From NCBI RefSeq assembly GCF_036507355.1, contig NZ_AP027877.1: a DNA stretch of 64,000 bases. One strand, written 5' to 3'. Below the pieces are notes generated by a model that was not told the DNA's origin, ran no database searches, and saw nothing but the letters and a program-made list of their open reading frames with translations. A program made the position numbers and the translations under genes. This stretch comes from Escherichia coli (GTDB lineage Bacteria; Pseudomonadota; Gammaproteobacteria; Enterobacterales; Enterobacteriaceae). Shown here piece by piece: positions 9,020 through 12,156 of this stretch (position 1 is the first letter of the stretch; each line of letters starts with the position of its first letter).

Positions 9020-9304
9020 TCAGTCGGACAGCTTTGCGAAGTACGCCGCGGCTTTTTTTAATATGTCCCGTTCGTCGGTAACCCGCTTCAGCTCTTTCTG
9101 GAGACGGCGGATCTCGGCCTGAGCATCTGACTGTTCTTTATTAGCGGAAGAATCCGGACCGTACTTCTTTATCCAGGCGTAAAGGCTGTGGGTGGTGATA
9201 TCGAGACGTGTTGCAACGCTGGCAACAGAATAACCGCGATCAACAACCTGTTTGACTGCTTCAATTTTAAACTCTTCGGGATAACGCTTACCGCTCATGG
9301 GCAC
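9020..9304 (-). CDS. IS3-family OrfA (HTH/leucine-zipper protein)
   Basis: 94-aa ORF MPMSGKRYPEEFKIEAVKQVVDRGYSVASVATRLDITTHSLYAWIKKYG... Confidence 0.9.
   Translation of the reverse strand: MPMSGKRYPEEFKIEAVKQVVDRGYSVASVATRLDITTHSLYAWIKKYGPDSSANKEQSDAQAEIRRLQKELKRVTDERDILKKAAAYFAKLSD
9040..9062 (-). other. Probable programmed -1 ribosomal frameshift site of the IS3-family element
   Basis: An A7 run on the coding strand (T7 at 9053-9059 on +) sits in the 0 frame as ttA AAA AAA Gcc near the OrfA 3' end, as in IS3-family OrfAB frameshift windows. Confidence 0.6.
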
Positions 9305-9361
9305 CTCTCTTTAAGCCATCTTAAATGACTCTGAGGTGTCTGTTAAACCCGTGGCGATTCA

Positions 9362-9699
9362 CCATGAATCAGGGAGTTGCTGATGTTCAACTGGTTTGTT
9401 GTTCCATCAGTAAAGTCATGATTCAGGTAATATGTAGAGATAGCCCCGTTAACAGTGTCACCATTAAAGGTGGTATCGAAATCACCGTTTGTGTTGTTAT
9501 AGTAGACAAAGCCACTATAATTCACATAGTTACCATCTACAGTACCCGGTGCATCCATATTGCTCCAGTCAAGAGCAGTAGTTGGATTGTCGTAATAAGT
9601 CCAGGTGTCATAAGTAGTTGCATTAGCCTGAGAGGTGATAGCCAGAGTGCAAGCCAATGCTAATTGTGATACTACAAGTTTCTTTTTCCAGGAGTGCAT
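9362..9699 (-). pseudogene. 5' remnant of an autotransporter-like gene (yaiT-like), signal peptide and start of passenger
   Basis: ORF begins MHSWKKKLVVSQLALACTLAITSQANA (Sec signal) followed by a Tyr/Asn/Thr/Asp-rich segment; the frame runs into the IS terminal repeat and stops. Confidence 0.55.
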
Positions 9700-10223
9700 T
9701 TGTCATCCCTCCTCAGGGACGTAATAAGTTGATCCATCAATTATCAATGCATAGAAAACATCTTATGTTTCGCGTTTACGATTATGCGGCGTTATAGAGG
9801 AATGGTTCAATTATTCTTTCCCCTAAGTCCGATTGCGGACATATATAAAAATATCTATACGCACAAAGAATAAGTTGACAAAAACACTGCATTTCAACAC
9901 GTTAATGAAATCATTAATTTTGAATTATAGATCCTGAAAATACCAAAACAACAAATCAGACAAATAATTTATCAATAAACAATGAACTTTAAGTAATTCA
10001 ATTTTTGACAGTTCAACCAAATTAGCAAAAATAATAACCAGCACCTATAAATAAAAATTAAAAATATTTTCAGTGAATATGAAATTATTGCTATTTCTAT
10101 TACAAAGATGTCCTGGCCTCTCTTCCATTCTCTTCTTGTCAACATCGCGACAACTTTCGTAAAACATCCCCACCCTGCTTCAGGTATACTATGCCCCTCG
10201 ATTCCACAAACATCAGGCAGACC

Positions 10224-11198
10224 ATGACAGACTTAATCCAACGCCCTCGTCGCCTGCGCAAATCTCCTGCGCTGCGCGCTATGTTTGAAGAGACAACACT
10301 TAGCCTTAACGACCTGGTGTTGCCGATCTTTGTTGAAGAAGAAATTGACGACTACAAAGCCGTTGAAGCCATGCCAGGCGTGATGCGCATTCCAGAGAAA
10401 CATCTGGCACGCGAAATTGAACGCATCGCCAACGCCGGTATTCGTTCCGTGATGACTTTTGGCATCTCTCACCATACCGATGAAACCGGCAGCGATGCCT
10501 GGCGGGAAGATGGACTGGTGGCGCGTATGTCGCGCATCTGCAAGCAGACAGTGCCAGAAATGATTGTCATGTCAGACACCTGTTTCTGTGAATACACTTC
10601 TCACGGTCACTGCGGTGTGCTGTGCGAGCATGGCGTCGACAACGACGCGACTCTGGAAAATTTAGGCAAGCAAGCCGTGGTTGCAGCTGCTGCAGGTGCA
10701 GACTTCATCGCCCCTTCCGCCGCGATGGATGGCCAGGTACAGGCGATTCGCCAGGCGCTGGACGCTGCTGGCTTTAAAGATACGGCGATTATGTCGTATT
10801 CGACCAAGTTCGCCTCCTCCTTTTATGGTCCGTTCCGTGAAGCTGCCGGAAGCGCATTAAAAGGCGACCGCAAAAGCTATCAGATGAACCCAATGAACCG
10901 TCGTGAGGCGATTCGTGAGTCACTGCTGGATGAAGCCCAGGGCGCAGACTGCCTGATGGTTAAACCTGCTGGAGCGTACCTCGACATCGTGCGTGAGCTG
11001 CGTGAACGTACTGAATTGCCGATTGGCGCGTATCAGGTGAGCGGTGAGTACGCGATGATTAAGTTCGCCGCGCTGGCGGGTGCTATAGATGAAGAGAAAG
11101 TGGTGCTCGAAAGCTTAGGTTCGATTAAGCGTGCGGGTGCGGATCTGATTTTCAGCTACTTTGCGCTGGATTTGGCTGAGAAGAAGATTCTGCGTTAA
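10224..11198 (+). CDS. hemB: Porphobilinogen synthase (delta-aminolevulinic acid dehydratase)
   Basis: 324 aa from [40 protein letters not shown]...; track ORF starts 11 codons upstream. Confidence 0.95.
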
Positions 11199-11244
11199 TT
11201 TTGTTTCCTCTCAGAAAGGGGGAGTTAACCTGTTGAAAGTACGG

Positions 11245-11298
11245 TGAACGCCCCCTCACCCTAACCCTCTCCCCAAGGGGGCGAGGGGACCGTCCACT
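11245..11298. repeat. GC-rich imperfect palindromic element between convergent hemB and tauD (Box C-like)
   Basis: gccccctcaccctaaccctctccccaagggggcgaggggaccgtcc; arms cccctcaccc / ggggcgagggg are near-complementary. Confidence 0.3.
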
Positions 11299-11304
11299 CT
11301 CGTA

Positions 11305-12156
11305 TTACCCCGCCCGATAAAACGGTTTATCCCCAAGAATCGTCGCCCGATGCATTATCCGTCGCTGTGGCAGGTAATCGGCATTGGCATAGTGCTGGGT
11401 CACGCGGTTATCCCAAATCGCAATATCATTTGGTTGCCAGCGCCAGCGCACCTGAAACTCCGGTTTGGTGATATGGGCAAACAAAAAACTTAACAAGGCT
11501 TCGCTCTCTTTCTCGCTCACATCAACAATTCGCGTAGTAAAGCCTTCATTCACAAACAGCGCCTGTTTACCGCTCACCGGATGCGTTCGCACCACCGGAT
11601 GTAGCAACGGCGGATTTTTCGCGACCGCCTCGCGCCAGCGTTGATGTTCCTCCTCGGTTTTGCGGTATTTGTATTCCGGGAACGATTTACGGAAATCATG
11701 CTCCGCACGCAGCCCGCTCAGCAGCTGGCGGAAGGGAACAGAGAGCGCCTCATAGGCCGCAATACCGCTGGTCCAGAGCGTATCACCGCCGGTCGAAGGT
11801 AACTCTTTAGCTGCCAGAATCGCCCCTGCGGGTGGCGTTTCAATAAATGTCACATCGGTATGCCAGTTGTCGTTATCTGGCGGATTATCGTTATGGGTAT
11901 CCAGCACGATGATCTCGTCAACCCCTTCGGCATGAGGGTAAACAGGGTGAATATGCAGTTCGCCAAAACGCTGGGCCAGCGCGCGTTGCTGCAGCGGCGT
12001 AATAGCTTGATCGCGCAGAAACACCACCTGATGGCGCAGCACCGCATGGTAAAGCTGTTCAAACTGATTATCGCTTAACGGGCGCGTCAGGTCGGCACCC
12101 GAAATTTGTGCGCCAATATACGGCCCCAGCGGGGTAATACTCAGACGTTCACTCAT
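11305..12156 (-). CDS. tauD: Taurine dioxygenase (alpha-ketoglutarate dependent)
   Basis: 283-aa [53 protein letters not shown]... Confidence 0.95.

Follow-up and report, generated by a model that had tools for sequence, protein, structure and literature searches.

Between the convergent genes hemB and tauD of Escherichia coli lies a short gap that holds a GC-rich sequence, and this locus raises the question of what that sequence is and whether it ends the transcripts that reach it from both sides. We analyzed the gap in a 64,000-nucleotide stretch of E. coli DNA (contig NZ_AP027877.1; the whole stretch is hereafter called the window), for which the original prediction had described an imperfect palindrome with the composition of a Box C-type repeat, probably serving as a shared terminator or insulator. 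Our results indicate that the sequence is, almost beyond doubt, a copy of the Box C family, consisting of a 36-nt core with three arms and a tail of about 17 nt. It is probably a passenger repeat in a tolerant 3'-to-3' spacer and not a dedicated hemB/tauD terminator or insulator. Taken as a whole, the best explanation combines a Box C passenger repeat, read-through that is ended by Rho, a hairpin acting as a barrier on the mRNA, and an origin of the copy as a solo end; we regard this combination as probable, with considerable room for doubt.

Identity and anatomy of the Box C copy

In a regular-expression search, the minus strand from 11287 to 11253 together with the trailing G fitted the published consensus of TMECO elements, 5'-CCCTCNCCC N3-6 GGGNGAGGG N3 GGGNGAGGG[G/T/C/-]-3', which was taken from Holder et al. 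2015 (PMC4666352). The core (11252–11287; G-rich minus strand, CCCTCGCCCCCTTGGGGAGAGGGTTAGGGTGAGGGG) is of type A with one mismatched triplet and matches exactly TMECO no. 5 in Table 1 of that paper (K-12 388664–388699, type A mm). The same core is HPGQ no. 13 in Table 1 of Kaplan et al. 2016 (PMC5100583; tauD/hemB, midpoint 388688) and holds the HPG1 21-mer GGGAGAGGGTTAGGGTGAGGG. The Box C-type character that had been predicted was thereby borne out. According to Holder et al. 2015 (PMC4666352), TMECO elements were first named BoxC (Bergler 1992) and then PIT elements (Hoyne et al. 2000). The hemB/tauD copy is a member of this family, alike in its intergenic position, its multiple copies and its strain-variable locus, and we found no difference at the level of the element. 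The HPG1 switch is physically the same sequence; the paper describing it drew no connection to Box C or PIT elements and called the motif unrelated to known motifs (Kaplan et al. 2016, PMC5100583). BoxC has been described as a 56-bp family with 32 copies in the literature (Petrillo et al. 2008, citing Bachellier for the length), and similarity to other copies spans approximately 11251–11303 here, that is, 53 bp against a literature unit of about 56 bp. A search against Rfam gave no family near threshold, the best hit being an unrelated family at 17.5 bits with a cut-off of 40 bits. Box C is reportedly also treated by Bachellier et al. 1999. The element is therefore already known and catalogued, and its family assignment is not new; what is new here are the allele frequencies at the locus, the link to published 3'-end maps, the core outside Proteobacteria and the association with DUF559 genes. 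For annotation, the label should be Box C/TMECO, not terminator.

The gap between the two genes is 106 bp (11199–11304), exactly as had been predicted, and is identical base for base to K-12 MG1655 388647–388752; window positions were converted as x = 399951 − K-12 MG1655 coordinate. On one side, the hemB open reading frame (ORF; porphobilinogen synthase) occupies 10191–11198 on the plus strand; on the other, tauD (taurine dioxygenase), the last gene of tauABCD, occupies 11305–12156 on the minus strand, with its stop codon starting at 11305. Both genes were taken from the ORF list and from the RefSeq annotation of identical DNA, and the limits of the gap from the ORF list and an alignment of alleles, in which it is the K-12-type allele. 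The Box C element is wholly intergenic, lying between the two stop codons, so that the hemB mRNA carries its C-rich strand and the tauD mRNA its G-rich strand in the 3' untranslated region. The 41-mer quoted in the original prediction was found at 11250–11290 with 0 mismatches.

Three 9-mers make up the core on the plus strand: arm 1, CCCTCACCC (11253–11261), the "third strand" arm of the published consensus, which is single-stranded 5' of the hairpin in the hemB mRNA; arm 2, CCCTCTCCC (11265–11273), the 5' arm of the hairpin; and arm 3, GGGCGAGGG (11279–11287), its 3' arm, for which the inverted repeats and folds allow pairing with either arm 2 or arm 1. Arms 1 and 2 are direct copies separated by TAA, and arm 3 is inverted and follows the spacer CAAGG. 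The description as an imperfect palindrome covers only part of this anatomy. The tail, GACCGTCCACTCTCGTA (11288–11304, plus strand), abuts the tauD stop codon; part of it is common to other copies (GGGGACYGWYC...), whose blastn matches reach approximately 11303. The left half of the gap (11199–11251) is unique sequence with no repeats elsewhere in E. coli by blastn. A repeat search found in it an imperfect inverted repeat (11217–11230 and 11243–11256), the right arm of which enters the start of Box C.

The genome-wide search proposed with the original prediction was carried out by blastn with the gap sequence and gave 88,123 matching places, spread over 5,425 of the 5,426 complete E. coli genomes (median 17 per genome, maximum 33), so the motif is multi-copy and not a single occurrence. 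Box C is dispersed about 15–30 times in most E. coli genomes. The copies at gabT-gabP, tusA/zntA, dolP/yraQ and ytfQ-ytfR share the consensus CCCCTCACCCTAACCCTCTCCCCARAGGGGMGAGGGGACYG, and the window itself contains one copy only, that in the hemB/tauD gap. We also considered a chance GC-rich palindrome without relatives. The predicted RNA fold of the whole gap is in keeping with this idea on the plus strand, where it was no better than shuffles (z −0.41); on the minus strand it was slightly better (z −1.86), and the 43-nt core gave z −1.65 (plus) and z −3.21 (minus). Against it stand the matching places in nearly every genome, the exact identity with a catalogued member and the occurrence of the motif in 0 of 100 shuffles of the window, and we reject chance outright. 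Folding energy alone is unconvincing, and it is repetition that is decisive for a more-than-chance origin.

Strain alleles, DNA structure and transcript ends

The K-12-type gap (105/106 bp, with Box C) was present in 3,598 of 5,426 E. coli genomes (~66%), and the element was missing at the hemB/tauD locus in the other ~34%. Most genomes without the K-12-type gap (e.g. ST131 and SCU-204) carry instead a spacer of 39 bp, TGTTCATTATGCCGGGTTATCCAACCCGGCATTTCCCCC, which is unrelated in sequence and has a perfect 10-bp hairpin of its own (z −4.6 and −4.1). A few genomes have a 157-bp gap, in which 51 bp is inserted in the Box C tail and duplicates approximately 15 nt of it. The spacer therefore has at least three alleles in E. 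coli (39, 105/106 and 157 bp; alignment including L007–L010). Because about one third of strains carry alleles without Box C, the element is dispensable at this locus; because those strains carry a different perfect 10-bp hairpin, some hairpin is kept at the hemB-tauD junction. Box C loci, hemB/tauD among them, are unusually polymorphic between strains, and TMECO loci were found to be far more variable than control intergenic regions in 56 strains (Holder et al. 2015, PMC4666352).

This variability, with at least three alleles here and one of them carrying an insertion in the element tail, could be expected if the repeat were a non-B DNA element, namely, a triplex or a G-quadruplex/hairpin switch that acts on DNA through replication stalling, rearrangement or local expression switching. 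The minus strand holds a canonical G-quadruplex motif (G≥3, loops 1–7), GGGG-AGA-GGG-TTA-GGG-TGA-GGGGG, with four G-tracts and 3-nt loops. A TMECO type A mm oligonucleotide formed an intrastrand purine-motif triplex in vitro by circular dichroism and nuclear magnetic resonance, with a melting temperature of about 74 °C, and nuclear magnetic resonance favored the triplex over the G-quadruplex for the full oligonucleotide (Holder et al. 2015, PMC4666352). HPG1 showed a G-quadruplex/hairpin equilibrium (Kaplan et al. 2016, PMC5100583). However, a mobile or recombining repeat of any kind would be expected to vary just as much, dimethyl sulfate footprinting in vivo did not detect the triplex (Holder et al. 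2015, PMC4666352), and the in vivo assays of PIT elements described below, as far as they are summarized there, showed no effect on replication, conjugation or expression. In addition, the conservation of the arms across phyla and their co-variation beside DUF559 genes (see the next section) point to recognition by a protein and not to structure alone. We consider a function of this kind at the DNA level unlikely.

A shared bidirectional intrinsic terminator or insulator that ends the hemB and tauD transcripts at the palindrome, as originally predicted, has in its favor the convergent position of the genes and the strength of the hairpins (−18.9 and −27.8 kcal/mol for the hemB and tauD strands, respectively). 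Like an intrinsic terminator, the element places a GC-rich hairpin just after a stop codon, and 6 of the 16 HPG1 copies in K-12 lie between convergent genes, with only 1 between divergent genes (Kaplan et al. 2016, PMC5100583). Unlike an intrinsic terminator, the hemB/tauD Box C lacks a U-tract on one side and an A-tract on the other: no U-run follows the hairpin on either strand, the hemB strand continuing as ACCGUCCACUCUCG and the tauD strand as GUUCACCGUACUUUC, and a scan with a terminator consensus found no site in the gap. In published assays, PIT elements acted neither as promoters nor as terminators and left RNA polymerase and reverse transcriptase unaffected (Hoyne & Maher 2002, in the part of that work summarized by Holder et al. 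2015, PMC4666352).

Published K-12 Term-seq data, which we used for the 3'-end mapping that had been suggested as a check, contain no curated 3' end at 3886xx–3887xx in three conditions, in lists limited to the ~1,000 dominant ends of each condition (Adams et al. 2021 eLife). In the bicyclomycin experiment of the same study, a Rho-dependent termination region on the hemB strand peaks at K-12 388499(−), with a Rho score of 3.8 and p 2e-9 (Adams et al. 2021 eLife, Supplementary file 2). After conversion, this peak for transcripts leaving hemB lies at approximately 11452 on the plus strand (11440–11465, approximate limits), antisense within tauD and ~160 nt past the element. Transcription from hemB therefore seems to pass the element and to be ended by Rho. 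Together with the missing U-tract and scan site, the negative published assays and the absence of the element from about 34% of genomes, these data leave the terminator or insulator role unsupported, and we judge it very improbable. A weaker form of the claim survives, in which the hairpin may fix or protect the 3' end of the hemB mRNA, by analogy with the 3' ends at other copies.

Three other copies in K-12 have RNA 3' ends just past the hairpin, an observation that could also be cited for a terminator. In the tables of Adams et al. 2021, a 3' end at 3781065(+) lies 4 nt past the last G of the hairpin of the lldD copy, another at 4231270(−) lies 4 nt past the hairpin of its copy, and a third at 632098(+) lies 11 nt past that of the cstA-ybdD copy. 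Four 3'-end rows in those tables contained the 15-mer of the C-rich strand and none contained that of the G-rich strand. The lldD end, which is inside a Rho region, scores 1.3 as an intrinsic terminator and so falls short of the threshold of 3, which argues against termination by the hairpin itself. Exonucleolytic trimming back to a stable stem after Rho termination is established for REP elements and Rho-terminated mRNAs, and the 3' ends of mRNAs terminated by Rho can be fixed by REP hairpins in the RNA. Such trimming gives ends at the base of a hairpin without a U-tract, inside Rho regions. Box C resembles REP/BIME elements as a short, GC-rich extragenic palindrome that is tolerated at gene 3' ends and occurs as singlets and inverted doublets; it differs from them in that its sequence is unrelated, it has no GTAG head, and it has three arms, not two.

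On this analogy, RNA polymerase would not be stopped at Box C but would run into antisense tauD and be ended there by Rho. In the hemB mRNA, arms 2 and 3 would form a 9–10-bp G:C hairpin after a C-rich, G-free single-stranded stretch (CCCCCUCACCCUAA), and this hairpin would be a barrier to 3'-to-5' exonucleases, so that the hemB mRNA would have a stable 3' end a few nucleotides beyond GAGGGGAC, as with REP hairpins. Since the hemB mRNA carries the element in the C-rich orientation, its 3' end is predicted near 11291 (K-12 388660). The C-rich arm might also, speculatively, aid the loading of Rho. For the tauD mRNA, the G-rich strand is predicted to give a still stronger hairpin or possibly a G-quadruplex. 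A 3'-end-protecting hairpin is plausible and is our best functional guess for the hemB/tauD copy, by comparison with the other copies; that the hairpin actually sets the hemB 3' end as an exonuclease barrier is a tentative proposal, to which we give slightly less than even chances. Several points weigh against this account: no 3' end is mapped at the hemB/tauD copy, and the barrier role is drawn by analogy with three copies in one dataset; the absence of an end from the curated lists is weak evidence either way; the coordinate of the Rho region is coarse, coming from 800-nt windows; the negative assays of Hoyne & Maher are known through another paper's summary; and, with a third of strains lacking the element, any role would be replaceable. 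The 3' ends right after the hairpin, in the C-rich orientation only, nevertheless offer a concrete handle on the effect of Box C on mRNAs, with hemB as one candidate.

A different arrangement was seen in the fepB leader. There, a very strong RNA 3' end at K-12 624680(−) (L132; ~100,000 reads; Adams et al. 2021) precedes the first arm of the Box C doublet at fepB-entC by 5 nt, so that the leader transcript ends just before the element, which is in the G-strand orientation.

Relatives of the core and association with DUF559 genes

TMECO elements have been reported as 3,610 copies in 262 proteobacterial genomes, with 143 in Enterobacter asburiae LF7a and none in Salmonella (Holder et al. 2015, PMC4666352). 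We scanned the pattern GGGAGAGGGNNNGGGTGAGGG in one genome per species, in a sample of at least ~14 genomes from outside the Enterobacteriaceae that is not a taxonomic census, and obtained at least 141 matches. Among the matches listed, the core was multi-copy in Alpha-, Gamma- and Deltaproteobacteria, Verrucomicrobia, Armatimonadota, a metagenome-assembled genome (MAG) of Nitrospirales and a MAG of Candidatus Gracilibacteria (28% GC); the third arm, which is outside the search pattern, was present at nearly every one of these matches, and in some of the genomes the core was embedded in longer genome-specific repeats. The core outside Proteobacteria extends the published range. In MAG GL140_5, two subfamilies show compensatory changes in the upstream hairpin (GCGGGCGGAGCCCGC versus GTGGGCAAGCCCAC).

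In the Gracilibacteria MAG (JALNXF01), 16 of 20 cores were inside ORFs of at least 100 codons under genetic code 25 and were translated in several frames and on both strands, giving peptides such as PHPNPLPEGEG, LTPTLSQRERE and SLSLWERVGVR. Judged by eye from characteristic motifs, the interrupted ORFs resemble IleRS, LepA, a MiaB-like protein, a RumA-like methyltransferase, an alanine racemase-like protein and a glycosyltransferase-like protein. Judging from the sequences, the repeat seems to have been inserted in frame into housekeeping genes. Rickettsia palindromic elements and other repeats are known to insert in frame into genes. The Gracilibacteria cores, which lie within housekeeping ORFs in several frames, resemble them in this respect, whereas the E. 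coli copies are strictly intergenic. The RumA-like ORF contains an inserted, complete DUF559 domain with a Box C-type element on either side (L098, 7113–7555).

The E. coli DUF559 gene, ycjD, adjoins Box C no. 9. YcjD belongs to PF04480 and is a predicted Vsr-related PD-(D/E)XK nuclease. The last codons of ycjD (SPSP and the stop) are encoded by a Box C-like hairpin; after this hairpin come a partial duplicate (45 nt) of its own 3' end and then Box C no. 9 (L136, 1205–1430). We read 13 DUF559 genes at the DNA level: those of Afipia (L048, 3167–3608), metagenomic contigs L137–L140 and L143, Enterobacter asburiae (L141), contigs L145–L148, which were picked since their predicted proteins lack a Box C-derived peptide, the Gracilibacteria insertion and E. 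coli ycjD. All 13 were flanked by at least one Box C-type element and about 10 by elements on both sides; the both-sided cases in Afipia L048, L137–L139, L143 and L145–L148 have inverted copies, and E. coli ycjD and the Enterobacter gene have the right-hand element only. In polarity, a C-G-G element stood 0–30 nt before the start codon and a C-C-G element formed the last codons; the arm sequences co-varied between families. Doublets in E. coli have the order type B (C-G-G), 16–27 nt, type A (C-C-G), which is the architecture of the DUF559 unit minus the gene.

The same association was seen in protein sequences. Of the 120 nearest YcjD homologues, approximately 75 have PSP(R/Q)PSP as their C-terminus, which corresponds to the C-strand of Box C read in frame. 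In a set of 146 diverse representatives sharing no more than 50% identity, Box C-derived peptides beside the domain were present in 28 (strict) to 48 (relaxed), against 0.2–0.75 with shuffled flanks. These peptides occurred in three reading frames, and it is therefore the DNA that is conserved, not the peptide. The Enterobacter homologue is at a locus different from that of E. coli ycjD. DUF559 as a whole comprises 24,577 clusters at 50% identity, and our literature search found no paper linking DUF559 with Box C-type repeats.

These observations suggest an origin that is compatible with the readings discussed above, namely, that Box C elements are the terminal inverted repeats, or the targets, of a selfish element that carries as cargo an endonuclease of the DUF559 type (YcjD-like, Vsr-fold PD-(D/E)XK). 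The doublets would then be gene-less MITE-like derivatives, and single copies such as that at hemB/tauD would be solo ends. The arrangement recalls the REP/RAYT system, in which a single-copy nuclease-type gene is likewise flanked by inverted repeat copies; RAYT, however, is an IS200/IS605-like TnpA with a Y1 transposase, whereas the gene associated with Box C is a Vsr-like PD-(D/E)XK DUF559 gene with a putative part in mobilization. The flanking of all 13 genes, in about 10 of them on both sides with the polarity given above, the doublets of matching architecture, the homologues ending in Box C-encoded peptides, the peptides beside the domain in numbers far above the shuffled expectation and in three frames, the different loci in E. 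coli and Enterobacter and the co-variation of the arms all argue for this origin.

On the other side, neither a filled-versus-empty pair of sites was found nor a target-site duplication defined among the loci compared, and E. coli ycjD has an element on its right only. Only 2 DUF559 genes were present in 1.05 Mb around the matches listed (141 motif copies). The gene ycjD is found in only 3,378 of the 5,426 E. coli genomes, and many Box C copies persist in strains that lack it; E. coli O157:H7 and other strains have no ycjD at the fabI locus but still show ~14 matches to the gap, which breaks a strict correlation between ycjD and Box C. The flanking elements could also be signals for gene expression or preferred insertion sites, and Holder et al. 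2015 (PMC4666352) found no link of TMECO to transposons, phages or plasmids. For the hemB/tauD copy in particular, neither a partner element nor a DUF559 gene has left a trace in the left half of the gap, and the origin of the copy as a solo end is drawn from the family and not from the locus. With the evidence so divided, we put the proposal that Box C elements are the ends or homing targets of a widespread selfish DUF559 element a little below an even chance; if it holds, the hypervariable loci would reflect endonuclease-driven breakage and repair. From the sequence comparisons we infer that the hemB/tauD copy would be a solo end; in the complete members of its family, a DUF559 gene stands between two Box C-type elements in inverted orientation.

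To our knowledge, Box C/TMECO repeats have been without a known origin for about 30 years. Through the association described here, a DUF559 protein becomes a candidate trans-acting factor for the spread of Box C and for its strain-to-strain instability, neither of which is known to have been explained, and a very large family of "unknown function", DUF559, gains a possible role.

Two possible remnants were sought in the gap itself. When its left half (11199–11251) was aligned locally with five real doublets, as a possible decayed type-B partner, the match did not exceed that of shuffles (p 0.13–0.58), and a decayed doublet was rejected. Six-frame translation of the gap compared with the 120 YcjD homologues matched only Box C-encoded peptides, and a DUF559 gene remnant was rejected. 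At the fabI locus, similarity to K-12 is lost ~40 nt before Box C no. 9 in ~38% of E. coli genomes (among them IAI39, O157:H7 and some avian pathogenic E. coli), where a TetR/RND efflux (eef-like) island replaces ycjD beside fabI (L136/L144). The fabI/eef junction of IAI39 has no Box C on the fabI side.

Neighboring genes in the window

Beyond tauD, the ORF list gives tauC and tauB. The mechanically derived hemB ORF is 335 amino acids long, compared with a RefSeq hemB coding sequence of 975 nt (324 amino acids), which places the annotated start 11 codons downstream of the first ATG (window 10191–10223). Upstream of hemB is an ORF on the minus strand (9020–9304, MPMSGKRYPEEFKIEAVKQVVDRGYSVASV...) that resembles orfA of IS3-family insertion sequences, and beside it a second minus-strand ORF (9343–9699) begins with a signal peptide and resembles the start of an autotransporter. 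We take the ORFs at 9020–9700 to be probably the yaiT pseudogene of K-12, interrupted by an insertion sequence.

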